Assembly (NCBI RefSeq): GCF_004010195.1
Contig: NC_057758.1
Coordinates: 9,358,623-9,414,107 of the forward strand
Length of the DNA stretch: 55,485 nucleotides
Source of the DNA: Chiloscyllium plagiosum
Taxonomy: Eukaryota
Direction of reading: 5' to 3'
This document shows, one piece after another, positions 2,562 through 53,651 of the stretch (positions within the stretch are counted from its first letter, which is position 1; each line of letters begins with the position of its first letter). Made by a program: the position numbers and the translations under genes. The notes below the pieces were generated by a model that worked only from the letters and a program-made list of their open reading frames with translations, was not told the origin of the DNA and did not search any database.

Positions 2562-2631
2562 ATGCATGCTCCTGCAAGAGCGCCGATATTTGTACTTTAT
2601 TACTCAGCCCTTGCTACTTTCGGAGTTCCAG
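2562..2631 (+). CDS. GPR139-like GPCR gene A, coding exon 1 (MHAPARAPIFVLYYSALATFGVP)
   Basis: ATG at 2562, YY..L...G.P TM1 motif, phase-1 donor G|GTAAAT; joins in frame to 4400 giving GVP-A-NLVT. Confidence 0.9.
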
Positions 2632-3144
2632 GTAAATTATGAGAATACAGTATTATTGACATACTGATGTTTAAAAGTGCGTTTGTGGAATAGTTGGGGA
2701 TTGATTATATCCTCAGCTGATTGATAAAGATTTCATTTAATCAGTGAAACATCGTAATACCCTTAACCTTTTTGTTGTTCTTGCTGAAGTAAACGTTAGC
2801 TGACTTTCTGAGTCAGTGAACAATGGCAATCAATGGTGTTCATTCTAGTTTCGAAGGTTTTTTTTTAATATTCCCAATCTGGTTCATTCAGATGTTTATG
2901 ACGGATGTTTTAGCGATCATATCTACTTTATGTAATTTACTTTATTTCTTTATGACCATTTTTTTTTCATTTCTAGTCTTTGTTTTGTACACGTTCGTGG
3001 AAGAAGTGCACCATTGGTTGGGTCAGCACGTATTAGCCAACCCTAGCTTCCCTTCTGAAGATGGTGATTAAATTGTCGTTTTGAACCACTGCAGTTCCCT
3101 TTATGCGATTGTTCCGAAGTGTTGTTCAGGAATACTTAAGGAGT

Positions 3145-3344
3145 CGGAAAATATAGCGTTGGAAAAGCACAGGAGGTGAGGCAGTATCTGAGGAGATGGA
3201 GTATCAGGCATAAGCACATCCTGATGAAGGGCTTATACTCGAAACGTCTACTATCCAGCTCCTGGTATGCTGCCTGATATGCCATGTTTTCCAGTGCCAC
3301 ACTTCAGCACTGGCTGTCCAGCGTCTGCAGCCCTCACTTTCTCC
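3145..3344 (+). mobile_element. Degenerate palindromic PLE-derived short element in the gene A intron
   Basis: Imperfect inverted arms; CTGATGA-A-GGGC-TTAT-ACTC-GAAA-CGTC at 3221-3248; ends in CTCACTTTCTCC like the other copies. Confidence 0.7.
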
Positions 3345-4399
3345 GAGGTAATTACAGGGTACTGAAATGTTGACATTGAAGGAGTGGTAATATGTTTCCA
3401 GGTCGTGGTGAGGAGTAAATTGAAGGAGACCTTGCAGGTGCTGGTATTGCAAATGATCTTCTTTCCTTCCCCCTCTGTCAGCGATTGTCCACGGGTTTAG
3501 CGTGTTCTTTCTTCAGGGTCTTTGTAAATTCGTGCAGCGCATCTTGGAGATGATACAGACAGCCGCGAATTTCACTTACTTCTGAAGGAAGTGAATGTTC
3601 ATTTAGATGTTGACAACCAATAGGGCTACGCATTTTCCTGAGAAACAGTGAAGATTGTTGTTGGAACTATACACGTCCAGTAACCATTACATTGCACACC
3701 TACTGCCATACAGAAGATGTGCAAGTAGTGAAGATTCATTAACTGAAAAACGCAAGCATGTTCTCTGCTATCTTGATTTGCGATGCCAAATGCCTCGCAC
3801 GTGAGTGGCGCGAGTATTTCCTACTTCACAGTCCTACTGCAATTCAACGTGGTCTGTTTCTGAATCTAATGAGCTGTGAATTATATTTTCGTAAGTGAAT
3901 GCCTGAGATCTGTCTGTAACTTGAGGGAAAGATTGTTGATGAAACAATTAAAGTGGATTTCGTCTTGTTGATACAGTTATTGTCATTGTTTACTATGATC
4001 GGATATGATTCAATATGCTTTCCCTCACCATTATAGCATCGCTACTCCAAATTCCGGTTGTGAAATGAAGTTCAATTCATGACATTTATTTATTATAGCA
4101 AGGCACTAAGCAGGAAGATTCTGAAGAAACTTTCTTTCCTGTGTTCAGTTTTTCTTTGGGATCAACATTTTCATTCGTGACCCTTCGGAAATACATGCTC
4201 AAACACTTATTTTCGTTTTGAATCCAACATAACTGTTACAAATTGCATGTTATCCTTTCGCCAAATGAACAATGCCATTTTCCATTTCATCTGTCTATCT
4301 GTAAGTTTCTCTCTCTCTGTCTCTGTCTCTACTTGTCTGTCCGTCTCACTCAATCTCTCCCTCTCACACTCATTTTATCTCGCACTCTGTCTCTTACAG

Positions 4400-5310
4400 C
4401 CAACCTGGTGACAATAGCTATACTCTCCCGAGGAAGATGTGGGCTCTCAGGATGCATCACTCGATATCTAATTTCCATGGCGGCCACAGATCTCCTTGTT
4501 ATTATCGCTGCAGTGATTTTAAGTCGGCTTCTGGCAATTTACTTTCCAGCTAGTTTAATAAACGCCACAACAGGATGTCGTCTCATAATTCTTCTTGTCT
4601 ACGCTTCCCGAAACTGCTCTGTCTGGTTGACTGTCGCTTTCACCTTTGATCGGTTCATAACCATTTGTTACCAGAAGCAGAAAACGAAATACTGTACAGA
4701 GAAAGTAGCATCTTTCGTTATAGCAATCGTCTGCGTGCTGTGCTGTTCAGTAAACATTCCATTTTACTTCATATATGAGCCCTTATATACCATTGATAGC
4801 GTAGGCTGGTACTGCAACATTAAGGAGATCTTTTACACATCTGTTGTTTGGAGAATGCTTGAAACTTTAGACCGTATTCAAACTCCATGTCTACCGTTCG
4901 TCCTTATTTTACTCCTTAATGCACTGACTGTCAGACACATCATAGCTGCTGGTAGATCCCGCAGGAGACTCCGATCCCACAGCAATGAAAATAATAAGCG
5001 TGACACAGAAATGGAGAGCAGGAGAAAGTCCATCATCTTACTCTTTGCAATCTCAGGCAGTTTCCTGCTGTTGTGGTTGACGTACATTGTGTATTTTCTA
5101 TTTGTGAAGATTTCAGGGAACAGATTTTTAATCGGTTCCAATCTCAATGATCCCAAATTTATTCTGCAGGAAAGCGGGTACATGCTGCAACTCTTAAGTT
5201 CATGCACGAACACGTGCATTTATGCAGTGACACAGACAAAATTTCGAGGTCAGTTGAAAGATGCTTTCAACTACTTCTCCAAACTGATGACGAAATGTCA
5301 TAAACAGTGA
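4400..5310 (+). CDS. GPR139-like class A GPCR gene A, coding exon 2 (326 aa spliced)
   Basis: CT-rich tract and CTCTTACAG acceptor (AG 4398-4399); 7TM pattern with MAATDLL, SVWLTVAFTFDRF, LPFVLILLLN, NTCIY, KFR; stop TGA at 5308-5310. The first 52 aa of the ORF-track entry are intronic. Confidence 0.93.
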
Positions 5311-5729: not shown

Positions 5730-6210
5730 ATATAATTCTCGTTAAGATTGTGACTTGACTTCCTGAGGGCTTCATACCTCTGAATTGTAGAAGACACCAT
5801 CTGGATTGCATTTCAAATGCAACTTTCTGTCAAACATCACAGTCTGAGAGTCATAGAGCTGTGCATCACAGAAACAGACACTTCGGTCAAATTGGGAGAA
5901 AGTGAGGACTGCAGATGCTGAAGAAGGGCTTATGCACGAAACGTCAATTCTCCTGCTCCTTGGATGCTGCCTGACCTGCTGCGCTTTTCCAGCCACACAT
6001 TTTTCAGCTCTGATCTCCAGCATCTGCAGTCCCCACTTTCTCCCAGTTTGACCGAAGTGTCTGTTTCTGTGATGCACAGCTCTATGACTCTCAGACTCTG
6101 TGATGTTTGACAGAAAGTTGCATTTGAAATGCAATCCAGATCGTGTCTTCTACAATTCAGAGGTATGAAGCCCTCAGGAAGTCAAATCACAATCTTAACG
6201 AGAATTATAT
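5730..6210. repeat. Inverted repeat, about 190-bp arms (5730-5920 / 6018-6210)
   Basis: Arms are reverse complements with about 4 substitutions and one 2-bp indel. Confidence 0.95.
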
Positions 6211-39697: not shown

Positions 39698-41385
39698 ATA
39701 GAACATAGAACATAGAAAAGTACAGCACAGAACAGGGCCTTAGGCCCACAATGTTGTGCTGTGGATTAATCCTAATGTAAGAATAATATAACTTAACCTA
39801 ATCACCTTCCAACTCACTGCAGTCCAAGTTCATGTCCAGCAGTCGCTTAAATGTCCCAATGACTCTGCTTCCACCATCTCTGCTGGCAACGCATTGCATG
39901 CATTCACAACTCTCTGCATAAAGAACCTGCCTCTGATGCCCACTCCATACCTTTCTCCTAATCTCTTAAAACTATGACCCCTCGTGCCAGTCAATCCTGC
40001 CCTGGGGAAAAGTCTCTGGCATTGACAATTTCCATGCCTCTCATTATCTTGTGTAACTCGATCAGGTCACTTCTCTTCTGCCTTCTCTCCAGAGACAAAA
40101 TTCCGAGCTTATTCAAACTCTCTTCATAAGGCAAGTCCTCAAGTCCAGGCAGCATCCTGGTAAACGTTCATTGCAACCTCTCCAAAACCTCAATATCTTT
40201 CCTACAGTCGGGCGACCAGAACTGTACACAATATTCCAAGTGTGGTCTCACCAGACACTTGTAGAGCTGGAACTAAACTTCGCGGCCCTTAAACACGATC
40301 CCCCCGTTAATGAAAAGCCAAAATACCATATGCTTTTTTAACAAACCTATCCACATGGGCGGTAACTTTGAGGGATCTATGTACTTGAACACCAAGATCC
40401 TTCTGCTCCTCCACACTGCCAAGAATCCTGTCTTTAATCCTATATTCCGCATTCGAGTTCGACCTTCCAAAATGCATCACTTCACATTTATCCAGGTTGA
40501 ACTCCATCTGCCATTTCTCAGCCCAGCTCTGCATTCTGTTTATGTCACGCTGCGAGGCAAAAGTGAGGACTCCAGATGCTGGAAACCAGAGTTTAGATCA
40601 GAGTGTGGTGGAAAAGCAAATCATGTCCGGCTGCATCCGTGGAGCAGGAAAATCGACGATTTGAATTCTATCCCTGATGAGGGGCTTTTGCCCGAAACGT
40701 CGATTTTCCTGCTCCTCCGATGCTGTCGGACATGATGTGCTTTTCCAGCACCACTCTGATCTAAACTATGTCGCGCTGCAGCCTGCAGTAGCACTCGATA
40801 CTATCAACGGTTCCTCCAACCGTTGTGTCATCTGCAAATTTACTAACCCATACCTCAAACTCCTCATCCAAGTCATTTATAAAAACTACAAAGAGCAGAA
40901 GCCCAAGAACAGAGCCCACGGGACCCCATTCACCGACCTCCAGGCAGAATACTTTCCATCTACATCCACTCTCTGCCTTCTGTCAGCCAGCCAATTCTGA
41001 ATCCAGACCGTCAAATCTCCCTCTATCTCATACTTCCTGACTTCATGAATGAATCTACCATGGGGAACCTTATCAAATGACTTTCTGAAGTCCATATACA
41101 GCACATCCGCTGCTCGACTTTCGTCGACCTATCTTGTTACCTCCTTAATGAACTCAATAAAATTTGTGAGCCATGACCTGCCCCTCACAAAACCATGCTG
41201 ACTGCCTTTACCCACGCTACGCTTTTCCAAATAGTCATAAATCCTACCGCTCAGAATTCTTCCCAAAATTTTGCTGACCTCAGATGCAAGACTGTCTGGT
41301 CTGTAATTGCCACGGAATTCCCTATTTCCCTTCTTGAAAAGTGGAGCAACATCCACCTCCTTCCAATCCTCTTGGTACGACTCCA
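39698..41385 (-). mobile_element. 5'-truncated CR1 LINE
   Basis: (ATAGAAC)n tail; WAEKWQMEFNLDKC, DFRKSFDKVPHGR, SQHGFVRGRS. Confidence 0.9.
40554..40766 (+). mobile_element. Palindromic PLE-derived short element with an intact hammerhead core (40674-40701)
   Basis: 13-bp TSD TATGTC(A/G)CGCTGC (40541-40553 / 40767-40779); inverted arms; CUGAUGA-G-GGGC-UUUU-GCCC-GAAA-CGUC. Confidence 0.85.
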
Positions 41386-45542: not shown

Positions 45543-46080
45543 AAAGTTTGTGAAAAGATTTGTAGCTCGGGTGCTCGTTGTTGTGGTTTTGTTCGCCGAG
45601 CTGGGAATCTGTGTTGCAGACGTTTCGTCCTCTGTCTAGCTGACATCCTCAGTGCTTGGGAGCCTCCTGCGAAGCGCTTCTGTGATGTTTGCTCCGGCAT
45701 TTATAGTGGTTTGAATCTGCCGCTTCCGGTTATCAGTTCCAGCTGTCCGTTGCAGTGGTCGGTATATTGGGTCCAGGTCGATGTGTTTATTCATTGAATC
45801 TGTGGATTAGTGCCATGCCTCGAGGAATTTCCTGGCTGTTCTCTGTTTGGCTTGTCCTATAATAGTAGTGTTGTCCCAGTCGAATTCATGTTGGTTGTCA
45901 TCTGCGTGTGTGGCTAGTAAGGATAGCTGGTCGTGTCATTTCGTGGCTAGTTGGTGTGAATGGATGCGGATCGTTAGCTGTCTTCCTCTTTGTCCTATGC
46001 AGTGTGTTTGTGCAGTCCTTGCATGGGATTTTGTACACTACATTGTTTTTTCTCATGTTGGCTATCGGGTCCTTCCTGAC
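45543..46080 (-). mobile_element. Penelope/Poseidon-like 3' fragment with a hammerhead motif (45616-45655)
   Basis: Reverse complement of about 22270-22801. Confidence 0.88.
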
Positions 46081-46830: not shown

Positions 46831-48190
46831 TCTATGGATAACTGAAACTCTCCTTCCCAGGGAACATCCCAGTCAATCCCATCTGCACTACCGCTCCCAT
46901 TTCCCTCAGCATTCTAGAGCTGCACAGTTTATGGCTGAAACAAATCTTATCACAGTTCTAGCTTGATGTTCTGCTCTTAAATTCAATGATTCGCCCAATA
47001 AAGGCAAGTATCCGAGATATTATTTTCAATGCTTCGTCCATCTGTCTTGATAACTTCAGGACGTACAAATCAATATCCCACTAATCTTTGCAGTTTCTCA
47101 AGGTCCTCCACTTCTTCATATTTTCCCTTACACACTTTTTCTTGCTGAAGAACATCTCCTCATATTTTCCAGAATGAGTTTCAGTTGCCATAAATTAGCG
47201 CATTTGAGTAGAAAATCTATAACCTCATGTAATCGAAGATTAACTTCCTCACCATTTATCACCCCACCATGCTTGCATCATTAGTGAACTTGATGCTCAG
47301 CCCATGTATATTCACGAATAAATCATTCATATAAACCGCAACTATCAAACGATCCAACATTGACCAGAGTCGTCCAGTTGGAAAACAACCTCTCAAACAT
47401 AACCCTCCGTTTCCTAAAACTCAGCAAATTGTGGATTCACGTGCCTAAAAACTGGAGTTCTTATTTCATTTTTAGGTGTCTGAATTACGTCATAACTTTA
47501 AACGATTCAAGAAGTGCGTAGAGAAGGTGAATAACAAAGATTTTCACATCCCACCTCACCGGAGTTTTTCAAAGAGCTAAGTTATATTGATTGTCTTTCT
47601 ACAATATGAGTTGCTCCTTAAGGTGAGGTGATGCAGTCGTCGGAGGAGAAGTTTTATTCTAATATGCTGTTTACAATTAAGAAACTGTCACTCGGGATAC
47701 AATATTGTGCACAGGTTCTGAAATTGTTTGATGTGCTCTTTGCATGTCGGGTTTCAATTCATGTACTCCATTCCACTAAGTTCAAGAGCTGGGAAATTTA
47801 AAGGATTCCCAGTTTCTCTTTGAATATTTAGTTGAATGATTATTAGTGATGAAAGAATACCAATCCAGTTGTGTAGTAGAGCAGTAATGGAAGTGCAACA
47901 ATGACTTATATTATTCAATTTTGTGATGGACACAGCAGAGTGAATTCCATAAAGAAAGACCAAGCGATCTATCAATGGAATAATTAATGTTTAAGAGTTA
48001 CGATGTTGCCTAGCAAAGAAGGCCATTCATCTTGTCATTAGGGAATCAATCGTATTTCTTCAGAATCTGATGTTTATGGATTCAGCTGCAGTGTCTAAAC
48101 CTATTCTGTCAACACAGAGACTCATATGACGCACTTGTCATTACGTGTTGATCAAATATATGAAGGATCAGTTATGATCAGAGATAACCC

Positions 48191-48356
48191 ATGGAAATTT
48201 CAATGGAAAGTTCAGTGAATTTACCATCTCGGATTTTACATCCAGGAGATTGTTTGCATCACAAAGTGACATATTATTACGTAGAGAAGATGGAGAAGAT
48301 GTTTGCTTTGATTGACAAAACGGTATACTCGTTGATTGTTGTCATTGGAGTTCCTG
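48191..48356 (+). CDS. Additional GPR139-like coding exon 1 (orphan or alternative first exon)
   Basis: Open frame from ACCCATGG: MEISMESSVNLPSRILHPGDCLHHKVTYYYVEKMEKMFALIDKTVYSLIVVIGVP, then phase-1 donor G|GTAAAT; a shorter start is possible at 48290. Confidence 0.75.
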
Positions 48357-49010
48357 GTAAATAAAAACAACCACTGAAGTTGTGTTCTTCTGCTTCCGAG
48401 CTGATCACTTCTGTTTTTCGTTCCTCTGAAGGATGAATTACATTTATTGTAGTGGTTGGCATTGCACACATACTGGGTCATCGGTGCAGTTTGCTGCAGT
48501 TAAATGTGATAAAGAAATGCATTAGATTTATTCTGGTCAATGTATTTCAAAATAGCCTTTATATCCAGCTCACACACTGCCTGACACGATTGCATTTATG
48601 CTTGAGTAATATTTATGTACTGTTGAATTAAATTTTAGCGCACTTGTATCATTTCAAGACGTTATTTGCAATGTCCATATATGCTATTGTAATCAGCTCA
48701 TGTCACTGATTAGAATAGAATACCTCATACAATACGTTACTCCCACTCCGAATTGCACTGAATGTGAGCCACTGCATGTCAACAATTGAATGCTGCAGTA
48801 ATACATGACTGAGAGTGTCATCCAATGCAGAATTGTACTGATTGTGACTAACCAACTACAATGAGCGACGTATCTCAAGATGCCATACGATACTGAGAGT
48901 CCCAGGCTCTGGAGATTTTAACTGACTGTAATTTAGAAATTGGAGAAAAATGTATGTTATTGTACATTTATCGTTATTGTCAGTAACCCATTTAATATTG
49001 AATCATAGAA

Positions 49011-49920
49011 ACTGAATTCACCACAAAGGTATACGGGAAAGCCACACACACAGACTAATTCCTGAACTACGAAAGCAACCACCCCAACACACACAAAAGA
49101 AGTTGCATCAAGACACTATTCAAAAGGGCCACAACACACTGCAGTACACCACGACTGCAAAAAGAGGAAGAAGAACACCTATACAATGTATTCATCAAAA
49201 ACGGATATCCCTGCAATTTCATCAACAGATGCCTAAGGGAAAGACAACGGAATGAGGGCATGCCACAACCCAAAGGACTAGCCACATTACCATACATCAA
49301 GAGTATTTCTGAACTGACAGCCAGACTACTGCGACCACTAGGACTCATAATAGCACACAAACCAACAGCCACTCTCAGACAACAACTCACCAGGACGAAG
49401 GACCCGAAACCCAGCATGAGCAATACCAATGTAGTGTACAAAATCCCATGCAAGGACTGCACAAAACACGACATAGAACAAACAGGAAGACATCTAACGA
49501 TCCGCATTCATGAACACCAACTAGCCACGAAACGACACGACCTTAGGCAGCCACACACGCAGATGACAATCAACATGAATGCGACTGGGTCAACACTATT
49601 ATTATAGGACAAGCCAAACAGAGAACAGCCAGGGAATTCCTAGAGGCATGGCACTCATCCACAGATTCAATCAATAAGCACATCGATCTGGACCCAATAT
49701 ACCGACCACTACAATGGACAGCTGGAGCTGACAACCGGAAGCGGCAGATTCAAACCACTATAAATGCTGGAGGAAACATCACAGAAGCGCATCACAGGAG
49801 GCTGCCAAGCACTGAGGATGTCAACGAGACGGGGACGAAACGTCTGCAACACAGATTCCCAGCTTGGCGAACAGAACCACAACAATGAGCACCCGAGCTA
49901 CAAATCTTCTCACAAACTTT
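49011..49920 (+). mobile_element. Penelope/Poseidon-like 3' fragment (GIY-YIG) with a hammerhead motif (49809-49847)
   Basis: ATLPYIKSISE, VVYKIPCKDC..QTGR..RIHEH. Confidence 0.9.
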
Positions 49921-49924
49921 ATTA

Positions 49925-51090
49925 TCTGAATACTAACAGTTTCAGGAAAAGTGAGGTGCGACGAGACCTGGCTATTATGGTGGAATGTTGGTTGAACTTT
50001 GGCATGGAGGTGCAGCAGGCAGTGAGTAAAGCAAATTGCACGCTAGCCCTCATAGGAAGAGCGGTGAGTATCGGCGTAACGCTGTCTTGCCGCACTTATA
50101 CAGGGCCTGGGTGAGGCCAGATCTGGAGTACTGCATACAGATTTCATCTCCTCGGCTGAGGACGGATATTCTTCCTCTTGAGGCAGTCAAGCAATTGTTC
50201 GACAGACTGATTCTCAGGATGGCAGTGATGATATGTGTGGAAAGTCGAAAAGTTTGATGATAGAAAAAGCACAGTATGTCAGGCAGCATCCAATGAGCAG
50301 GAGAATTGACGTCTCATATGTGGTTCATCGAGAATTTGCAGGGGCAAGACAGTGAGACATAAATTGGTGAGGAGTGTGCATGAGGGGGCCTTAGGAAGGA
50401 TGATGATATTTGGATATAGGTAGAAAGTGATTTGATACATTGGTGGGAAGAATGGATTGGATGGGTGTGAAGGAAGCTGGGCAGGTTGGTCAAGTCAAAA
50501 GGGCGGTGTCGAGTTGGATGGTTTGACCTGTGATGAGATGGGAAGAGGGGAGATGAGGGAAATGGTGAAATGGACATTGATTCCGTGCGTTTGGACAGTC
50601 CCAAGCAGAAGATGAGATTCCGTTCTTTCAGTTGGCGGGTGGCTTTGCTTTGGCAGTGAATGAAGGACAGAAAAGATTGATTCGACTGGGCTTATATTTA
50701 CTGGAATTGAGAAGAATGATGGGCAGTGTCACAGAAATATATGAGATCCCTATGGAGCTGGATACGTTAGATTCGGGAAAAGTGTTGCTGATGTTAGTGA
50801 TGTTGATGAAGTCTAGAAGTGGGGATCAGAGTCTGATAATAAGGAGTATGCCAGTCAGGGTTGAGATGAGGAAGAATTTCACCATTCAGAGAGTTGTGAA
50901 CTGTTGAATTCTCTCCCGTAGGTTGTTGTTCCGGCCAGTTCATTAGATACATTCAAGTAGATATGAGGAGAGGGTGGTAATGAGATACTGAGGTTTAATG
51001 ATCAGCCATGACTCTATCTTATGATGTTGCGGGCTGGAAGGACTGAATGCTCTACTTCTGCATCCATTATCTAAATTTCTATGTTTCTAA
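49925..51090 (+). mobile_element. Old CR1 3' fragment, interrupted
   Basis: LYRAWVRPDLEYCIQ..LEAV; RLGLYLLELRR. Confidence 0.7.
50240..50650 (-). mobile_element. Neptune-like PLE 3' fragment joined to the short-element sequence
   Basis: Minus strand reads ATRQLKERNLIFCLG / TVQTHGINVHF (frameshifted GIY-YIG C-terminus), then a pyrimidine-rich UTR, then GACGTCAATTCTCCTGCTC..GGATGCTGCCTGAC. Confidence 0.65.
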
Positions 51091-51507
51091 TATTGCGAAT
51101 ATGGTACTGCACTAATAAGGACAGCAATACCCTTCATTTTTGTATATTCAATGGCTATTGTCATCCCAAAGGCATTTGTTAACCCCTTTCTACAATATTA
51201 CTTTCATACTACTTGTGGCAGGAATTGTTTACCCACTCACTCTGCATCTCATTCATGGTCATTCGCATGAAGGTTCAAGCAAATGAGGCTGCTTACGATA
51301 GTGCTGTCAAAATGGACATCCTGACCAACCCAGTCATCCTGAATGTACATGACTTTTTTTTTTAAAATGAACTAACAATATCGATATGAATTTTCATTTG
51401 ATATCTGGTTTGTCACGCAAGTAAATAGAACCCTTGGGCCTGTATTTGTTAAATGAATGCAACTCATGCTAATTATGAATAAACTAATTAATTCCTTTGT
51501 GGATTCA

Positions 51508-51544
51508 TAAGTACATAAATGAGTACATAAATAAGTACATAAAT
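51508..51544 (+). repeat. Three tandem copies of AGTACATAAAT at the expected TATA position of gene B
   Basis: Direct reading; ends about 55 nt upstream of ATG 51600. Confidence 0.8.
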
Positions 51545-51599
51545 AGCTATGTCCACCGCCAGTCAGTGTCTTCCTGTTCCTACATAATTCACTGAGAAA

Positions 51600-51669
51600 A
51601 TGGATAAAACAGTAATAATGCTGGTCAAAGAGTTTTACTACCCGATTATTGCAATCATCGGTATACCTG
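51600..51669 (+). CDS. GPR139-like GPCR gene B, coding exon 1 (MDKTVIMLVKEFYYPIIAIIGIP)
   Basis: AAAATGG start, YYP..A..G.P motif, phase-1 donor G|GTGAGT. Confidence 0.92.
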
Positions 51670-52149
51670 GTGAGTGATTACTGTCTGTTTCTTTATATAT
51701 GCGATGATATGGATGTGTTGGTGTTGAACTGGGATGGAAAAACTCAGAAGTCAAACGACACCAGGATATTTTCAGGTGTCTTCACCTAATTACGAGCAGT
51801 GCTCCAAAAGCTTGTGATTTCAAATAAACCTGTTGAACACTAAACTGATGTCGTCTGACTTATGATTAAGTAATTGGTAATGACTATTGCATTTTTCCTA
51901 CTATAAAACAGAAAGGTCATGGTTTCTGCAGAATAAGGCTTCTAAATCCGCTCGTCAGGTGAGAAAACATTCTTTTCGATCATGCTGCATCTGCCTTAAT
52001 AAAATAACATTACTCCAGTTGCAATATTTTTGAAATTACTGCACAAATGTTTTAGTAGCGTTGCGTATCACTCTGTGCAGTTCAGACTGAGGTTATAATG
52101 GTATTTCAGGTATCTATGGTATTTATAAAATGGTAATGGGATATATAAA

Positions 52150-52580
52150 ATGTGCAGAGGAGATTTACCAGGATGTTGCCTGGAATGGAGAATAGGTCAC
52201 ACGAGGAAAAGTTGAGAGTGCTAGGCCTTTTGTCATTGGAACGGCGAAGGATGAGGGGTGTCTTGATAGAGGTTTATAAGATGATCAGGGAATAGATAGA
52301 GTAGACAGTGAGAGACTTTTCCCTGGGTACAACAGAGTGTTACAAGGGGACATACATTTAAGGTGAAGGGTGGAAGGTATAGGGAGGATGTCATGGGTAG
52401 GTTCTTTCCCCAGAGATTGGTGGGGGCATGGAATGTGCTGCCTGTGGGAGTGGCAGAGTCAGAATCATTGGTGACCTTTAAGTGGCAATTGGATAGGTAC
52501 ATGGATAGATGCTTAAGCTAGCACAACATCGTGGGCCGAAGGGCCTGTTCTGTGCTGTATTGTTCTATGTTGTATATCTA
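52150..52580 (+). mobile_element. CR1 3' fragment in the gene B intron
   Basis: VQRRFTRMLPG coding remnant; GGGCCGAAGGGCCTGTTCTGTGCTGT..TTCTATG tail. Confidence 0.88.
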
Positions 52581-52740
52581 TGTATCACTTTCAGTGCAAT
52601 GTCCAGATAATGACCTTCATTGTTCAATTCTTTTTCATATTGATGCTCAGTAAATGGAATAAATTATTCTCAGCAAGTGCTTCTTAATAAATGGCAATCA
52701 GTTGTTAAAACATGTCTAATCTTGTCTCTCCTCCTTACAG

Positions 52741-53651
52741 CAAATGTGATGACACTTATAATTCTGTCTCGAAGGAACTGTGGTGTTTCTAAATGCATGT
52801 CGGTTTACATGGCAGGCATGGCCTCAGCGGATCTAATGATTATTTTCATTGACGTAATCTTATACCGCATTTTCAGTTTTCATTTTCCATTTTCATTCTT
52901 GTCACATACTCCAGTGTGCAGGACGATTTTATATACAATGATTTCCAGCGTTGACTTATCTGTTTGGTTCACAGTTTCCTTCACATTTGACCGTTTTGCA
53001 GCCATCTTTGATCCGAAATTTAAACGAAGATTCTGCACCCCAAGAAATGCTGGCGTAGTAATAACAACGTTCTCTTTTGTCAGTTTTCTCAAGAATATTC
53101 CGACTTTGTTTGCGTATGAAAACCAACAAATAATTGACGGAGTGCAGTGGGGATGTCAGTCAAGTGCGGATTTTTTTTTCTCACCACCAGGTATAGCTTT
53201 CGTTTGGTTTCACAGCAGCTGGGTCGTTTGGGTTCCTTTCACACTGATTCTCCTGTTTAATTCTTTGACCATACGCTCTATTCTACTGGCCAATAGAATA
53301 CGCCAAGCCCTCAAAAGTTGTAGCAATAAAAATTGCAGTGATCCAGAGATTGAGAACCGGAAGAAATCCATCATTCTATTGTTCTCTGTGTCAGGTTGCT
53401 TCATATTGTTTTGGTTGACAGCTTCCGTGAGCTTTGTGTCAACTAGAATATCAAACACCACTTATTACAAAGGCGACTACAATGATCCAGGATATATCGC
53501 CCATGAAGCAGGGACATTGCTGAAATTTTTGATTTGTTTACAGAACCCATTCATTTATGTAATAACCCAGAGGAAATTCAGAAATGCACTGAAAAATATG
53601 ATGAGATGTCTCTGGCCATTAATGTTGAGACCAGTTGGGAAATGGAACTAA
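52741..53651 (+). CDS. GPR139-like class A GPCR gene B, coding exon 2 (326 aa spliced)
   Basis: CTCCTTACAG acceptor ending at 52740; MASADL, SVWFTVSFTFDRF, VPFTLILLFN, NPFIY, KFR; stop TAA; AATAAA at 53658-53663. Confidence 0.93.

Follow-up and report, generated by a model that had tools for sequence, protein, structure and literature searches.

Two short exons of the same splice phase lie one behind the other upstream of a single receptor second exon in the genome of Chiloscyllium plagiosum, and the question is whether they serve as alternative first exons of one gene or whether the upstream one, ending at 48356, has been left behind by a gene of its own. The stretch analysed, called the window throughout, has 55,485 nucleotides (contig NC_057758.1, positions 9,358,623 to 9,414,107 of the forward strand), and positions are counted from its first letter. 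The downstream exon at 51600 and the second exon at 52741 belong to a receptor gene of a branch that we call S, defined by this second exon (52741-53651), while T is the other branch of the shark receptors auto-named 'probable GPR139'. Our reading, which we hold to be likely, is that the upstream exon began a T gene whose own second exon does not follow it, and that it is a non-functional relic beside an independent S gene, orphaned by a deletion and/or inversion associated with retroelements.

Results

The upstream exon is a diverged first exon of the T subfamily

The relatives of the second exon are shark and ray models named 'probable GPR139', of which 337 were found at E<=1e-40 (best 65%), and a second search, made from another branch, gave at least 1,984 relatives at the same threshold. 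The S and T sets are parts of the 120 matches listed of the 337 and of the 1,984, the T sample being 114 of the 1,984, and models without a family-like first exon or a detectable junction (30/106 in the S set, 55/114 in the T set) were left out of the first-exon counts. First exons had 23 residues in 73 of the 76 family-like S-set exons and 21 or 22 in 54 of the 59 T-set exons. No T-type first exon was found among the 76 of the S set, and of 128 unique exons compared by leave-one-out, 125 were of the type expected for their set. In all family genes seen here, a short first exon is followed by an intron in phase 1 that interrupts the first transmembrane helix (TM1) at one and the same position. 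Since the position and phase of the intron are family-wide, every first exon can be expected to join every second exon in frame, and such a match does not point to a design. Both donors of the locus are indeed in phase 1 and fit the acceptor at 52741, as described in the initial annotation. Annotators should be cautious here, since with a common phase a stray first exon will always resemble an alternative start.

The stretch from 48191 to 48356 comprises 166 nucleotides (nt) without stops and ends in CCTG before a phase-1 GTAAAT donor. Taken from the ATG at 48290, it scored 7.2 with the T profile and -10.4 with the S profile, and the score of 7.2 for T profile plus donor was reached by none of 100 random windows. 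With a profile built from the 23-residue exons of the 337-relative set alone, the score was 5.9 and was exceeded by 4 of 40 random windows; the paralogy of the exon is therefore clear only against the right subfamily. When searched by blastp against 422 collected proteins, the peptide of the upstream exon aligned over 48 residues with a Heterodontus model (XP_067913860.1, P0355) at 39.6% (E 2e-7), and the whole peptide matched P0334 at E 0.001 and P0313 at E 0.002. The 12 best matches shown (P0355 to P0364) were T-set models or had a second exon that starts as in the T models. The initial claim of a stop-free first-exon paralogue was thereby confirmed, and the exon was found to be a T-type first exon of the usual 21-22 codons with a phase-1 donor at the TM1 position, at a low score.

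Its start codon had been said to lie in a strong Kozak context. This is true of the ATG at 48290, with A at -3 and G at +4, and not of the ATG at 48191, with C at -3. Joined in silico to the second exon at 52741, the ATGs at 48191, 48203, 48290 and 48299 give products of 358, 354, 325 and 322 amino acids (aa), and the first exon at 51600 gives 326 aa, in agreement with the 358, 325 and 326 aa proposed initially. The likeness to P0355 continues beyond the family start at 48290 for about 25 codons in the 5' direction. Because most T models begin at a methionine located 21-22 residues before the junction, we regard 48191..48289 as conserved sequence 5' of the coding part, translated now and then by gene predictors, and likely to be a 5' untranslated region and not a conserved N-terminus. 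An extended N-terminus of 55 residues was rejected as a conserved feature: no longer protein was found, which is weak evidence, and the first 33 codons from the ATG at 48191, searched alone, gave no match under E 6.

We then compared the upstream exon with the sampled T-type first exons. Only one of 59 scored below it, three of its core positions carry residues present in none of the 59, and its nearest T-type neighbour is identical at 9 of 20 positions, whereas for 65 of 67 T-type exons the nearest one matches at 11 or more. The orphan exon is thus more diverged than nearly all sampled T-type first exons.

Contigs of two public runs contain the exon (X1 at 47713-48573 with 1 difference, X2 at 47221-48457 with 5 differences), so that an assembly error behind it is unlikely, bearing in mind that both runs come from one study and are possibly related to the source of the assembly. 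In the single-cell RNA run X5, of which about 2/100 was sampled, reads fell essentially only on repeats, with 0 on either first exon and a trace (0.14) in one bin of the second exon; X6 gave 0 reads, and these figures do not bear on expression or on the junction. As a separate observation, the contigs over the orphan exon (47221-48573) had about half the depth of most single-copy neighbours, with 8.3 against 16-21 in X1 (one other at 9.7) and 16 against 32-43 in X2 (others at 15 and 23). This could reflect a presence/absence polymorphism, but such depth is no copy number and was kept out of the evidence.

A broken T second exon lies upstream on the opposite strand

No T-type second exon follows the orphan exon on its strand. 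In 48357-51599, no second-exon remnant was found on the plus strand either by tblastn or by hidden Markov models (HMMs) of the two subfamilies (--max), in line with the initial statement that none lies between 48356 and 51600; a single minus-strand HMM match at 51485-51282 (6.5 bits, E 0.44) is at noise level. The only T-type second exon of the window, missed in the initial annotation, is a broken one at 39699-38790, 8.5 kb upstream of the orphan exon on the minus strand. The T HMM beat the S HMM on 3 of the 4 pieces matched by both and alone found a fifth, and the exon, which carries an insertion of about 300 nt at 39255-38955, fell as a long branch into the T clade with a support of 99 by the Shimodaira-Hasegawa-like approximate likelihood ratio test (SH-aLRT). 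The tree is a quick, unfinished version with 90 database rows (one protein twice) and three window rows, and its support is SH-aLRT without bootstrap. By HMM search, profile positions 1-86 (the first ~86 codons) and the acceptor of the broken exon do not occur in the window, where a first exon for it on the minus strand was not found either. The two T remnants are thus complementary, one being a first exon (48290) and the other a part of a second exon. By their subfamily assignments, the three first exons and the three second exons of the window can be matched into pairs: those of a complete gene A, those of the S gene, and the T first exon with the broken T second exon.

Both T remnants end at retroelement junctions

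Each of the two T remnants breaks off at a retroelement junction, and what should come next is missing: for the broken exon this junction is with the long interspersed nuclear element (LINE) at 39700-41380, for the orphan intron with the repeat at 49014-49920. From the intron remnant the sequence passes into this repeat and from there directly into the middle of another LINE. No target-site duplication is visible at 49014/49920, and the flanks are unrelated. We take the repeat to be Penelope-like, as in the initial annotation, and the LINEs at 49921..51090 and 39700..41380 to be of CR1 type; Pfam gives no match for the Penelope-like pieces, and it recognises reverse transcriptase and endonuclease in two LINE pieces elsewhere in the window. 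That local losses of about 2 kb occur can be seen at the sister repeat at 45543-46075, since it stands in place of ~2.06 kb of one LINE; this loss may have been a deletion tied to the insertion or a later recombination.

A loss of DNA associated with retroelements would then have removed or displaced the second exon of the T gene. In one version (a), a single T gene was split by an inversion, the minus-strand remnant would be its own second exon, and the end of the intron and about 86 codons were lost; in the other (b), two T genes stood head to head and each lost one half. We give the two about even odds. We also considered that the Penelope-like copies at 45543-46075 and 49014-49920, which are inverted to one another, recombined and so produced the inversion; this is unlikely, because the flanks of the left copy are colinear with one LINE and an older LINE seems to cross this copy in one orientation, by weak matches. 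A larger inversion may have taken place.

The same junction bears on an assembly artefact, in which a T second exon behind the repeat at 49014-49920 would have been collapsed out. Contigs from short reads cannot bridge a repeat of 900 nt, and the loss maps to that junction. However, there is no N gap near the locus (the sole one of the window is at 214-488), X1 and X2 contain the sequence on either side of the repeat, and the divergence of the orphan exon fits a relic, which makes such an artefact very improbable.

The S gene has its own first exon

The intact S gene begins 3.2 kb downstream of the orphan exon. Its first exon at 51600 has 23 codons, scored 40.0 with the S profile versus 26.9 with the T profile, and is identical to its best relatives at 15-16 of 23 residues. 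The second exon follows a TTACAG acceptor, ends at the stop at 53651, is intact over its seven transmembrane segments and falls in the S clade (SH-aLRT 98, in the same quick tree); a Heterodontus model (XP_067916017.1, P0001) is among its closest relatives. The gene is thus S-type in both exons. At 51512-51545, ~55-90 nt upstream of the native start, there are three near-tandem copies of a 10-nt A/T-rich word, a possible promoter element. Over 52882-53138 the summed contig depth is 250-270, against 16-43 on nearby single-copy contigs, which hints at several close paralogues of the second exon elsewhere.

Could the S second exon nevertheless have adopted the T first exon and its promoter after the T second exon was lost, giving a 325-aa chimera with a T-type outer TM1 beside the native 326-aa form? 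The orphan exon, found in both X1 and X2, has kept its ATG, frame and donor, the acceptor at 52740 is the strongest of only two that pass a crude scan of 48357-52740, and three Heterodontus francisci models (P0333, P0356, P0382) join a 23-aa non-T first exon to a T-clade second exon. The intact ATG, frame and donor, the best acceptor and the mismatched models are what makes a capture possible. Yet it is unlikely, given that T-type first exons are missing from the S set, that conserved positions of the exon carry odd residues, that an AATAAA at 48360 overlaps its donor region, that 4.4 kb, mostly repeats, would have to be skipped, and that splicing to a putative cryptic acceptor at 50921, at whose G the X1 contig has a difference, would lead to a stop after ~19 codons. 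As for the three models, they are unverified predictions and may be real first-exon swaps or prediction errors. We find it just as doubtful that, given the common intron position and phase, deletion-driven shuffling of first exons between subfamilies is routine in the huge shark arrays and that this locus, with a captured T promoter and first exon, is a swap in progress. If the junction between 48356 and 52741 were real, it would offer a simple route to the swapping of promoter and TM1 within a very large family of receptors.

Neither first exon duplicates the other

The initial annotation had left two options, an orphan whose second exon was lost, which the above findings favour, and a variable-first-exon design. 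The latter, of the kind known from UGT1 and protocadherin, would consist of first exons that arose by duplication, each under a promoter of its own, and that selection maintains before a constant second exon, and two in-phase first exons before one second exon do have this look. Anchored at their donors, however, the two exons, which are of different subfamilies, are identical at 30 of 67 nt, and each compared with the unrelated exon of gene A gives 26 and 33 of 67; a recent tandem duplication of the exon at 51600 was rejected as the source of the upstream one. In their 500-nt upstream regions no common sequence was found, the local alignment score of 19 being reached by 93 of 100 shuffles, although a very short motif could be missed by such an alignment. 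Moreover, the supposedly constant exon is itself multiplied, as seen from the 337 and 1,984 relatives, and the annotated isoform sets examined, in which the N-termini of P0121-P0157 are only partly displayed, showed no second family-type first exon. A design of this kind therefore has hardly any probability.

Other features of the window

The positions of all features are collected in Table 1. With gene A, three receptor subfamilies are found within 55 kb. Just 3' of gene A, a near-perfect inverted duplication lies at 5772-6205, where 5730-5800 matches 6210-6140 at 97% and two mirrored stretches can be made out.

Table 1. Receptor exons and repeats of the window
Feature	Positions	Strand	Remarks
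Gene A, complete two-exon 326-aa paralogue, third subfamily	2562..5310	+	exons 2562-2631 and 4400-5310; same intron position and phase
Broken T-subfamily second exon	39699-38790	-	restricted to profile positions 87-299; reading frame changes three times; three stops
LINE whose 3' tail abuts the broken exon	39700..41380	-	expected 5' part of the exon missing on the far side
Second, inverted copy of the putative Penelope-like repeat	45543..46075	-	in place of ~2.06 kb of one LINE with colinear flanks
Open-frame stretch 5' of the family start	48191..48289	+	~25 codons resemble read-through upstream of the start in three T-subfamily models
Orphan first exon, family-type coding part	48290..48356	+	22 codons + 1 nt, T-subfamily receptor; short N-tail and outer TM1; phase-1 donor G/GTAAAT
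5' stub of the orphan intron	48357..49013	+	single-copy in the window; X2 contig bridges 48428-49074
5'-truncated high-copy repeat	49014..49920	+	~90% identical to three or four other window copies; candidate deletion scar
Old LINE fragment	49921..51090	+	starts in the middle of open reading frame 2 at the 3' end of the repeat; interrupted at ~50245-50670; weak matches
Native first exon of the intact S receptor	51600..51669	+	70 nt, 23 codons + 1 nt, ends CCTG/GTGAGT, phase 1
Second exon of the intact 326-aa class A G protein-coupled receptor (GPCR), S subfamily	52741..53651	+	Pfam 7tm_1 E 2e-18; best relative 65%

Discussion

Several points weigh against the view that the orphan exon is the relic of a broken T gene. 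It retains its ATG, open frame and GT donor while the minus-strand remnant is badly broken; from ~7 lesions in ~210 codons, the chance for an exon of 22 codons to look intact is roughly 0.3, which is tolerable and not expected. The species is far from the database, with a best match of 65% for the second exon, and the native exon at 51600 likewise scores at the low end of the S set (40.0, the 5th percentile being 46.5). For these reasons, and since the T sample is only a small part of its matches, the low score of the orphan exon may point to an unsampled branch instead of decay. Cross-subfamily pairs of exons may exist, as the three mismatched Heterodontus models suggest, the case for a deletion scar at 49014-49920 is circumstantial, and the broken exon is a long branch in a quick tree without bootstrap. 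Even so, a relic remains the reading that we favour, and as such the exon would be an unremarkable outcome of the birth and death of genes.

The family itself seems to be undescribed in the literature searched: no paper on the shark 'probable GPR139' receptors was found there, with supplements and subscription journals outside its scope. A search of solved structures at 1e-10 gave no match, and viral and metagenome scans returned one weak, irrelevant locus each (L001, L002) and no shark loci. So large a receptor family in sharks sits oddly with the view of cartilaginous fishes as poor in GPCRs, as given in PMC8455134.

How does the locus compare with known systems? The nearest are the RefSeq/UniRef models of sharks and rays annotated as 'probable G-protein coupled receptor 139', such as P0355 for the orphan exon and P0001 for the second exon. 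They are likewise class A GPCRs of ~325 aa with a first exon of 21-23 codons that ends at the same TM1 position, and they occur in many copies per genome; unlike in these models, what follows the T-type first exon here is an S-type gene and not a T second exon. Human GPR139 and GPR142 are likewise class A receptors of orphan type; GPR139 is also a two-exon gene, and its orthologues are 70-96% conserved across vertebrates (PMC7318219), which the shark receptors are not. The second exon does not behave as a GPR139 orthologue, since among solved structures human GPR139 matched it only at E 1.2e-4, behind the 5-HT1A, bradykinin B1 and neurotensin receptors. Its closest matches outside chondrichthyans are coelacanth, salamander and teleost models labelled GPR139. 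The name 'probable GPR139' thus appears to be a loose one, and a link of the shark family to the fish and coelacanth orphan clades GPR210A/B (PMC6504862) is possible.

In the UGT1, GCNT2 and protocadherin clusters, as described in PMC1885805, the variable exons resemble one another as tandem duplicates and are each preceded by a promoter with a conserved motif, the constant exons are single and conserved, and relic exons also occur. Like UGT1 and protocadherin, the locus has several in-frame first exons upstream of a common downstream exon. Unlike them, its two first exons come from different subfamilies and are no similar tandem duplicates, a conserved promoter motif before each was not found in the 500 nt upstream, and the second exon has been duplicated along with each gene. 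The locus is thus only superficially like a variable-first-exon cluster and is best regarded as a relic within a receptor array that evolves by birth and death.

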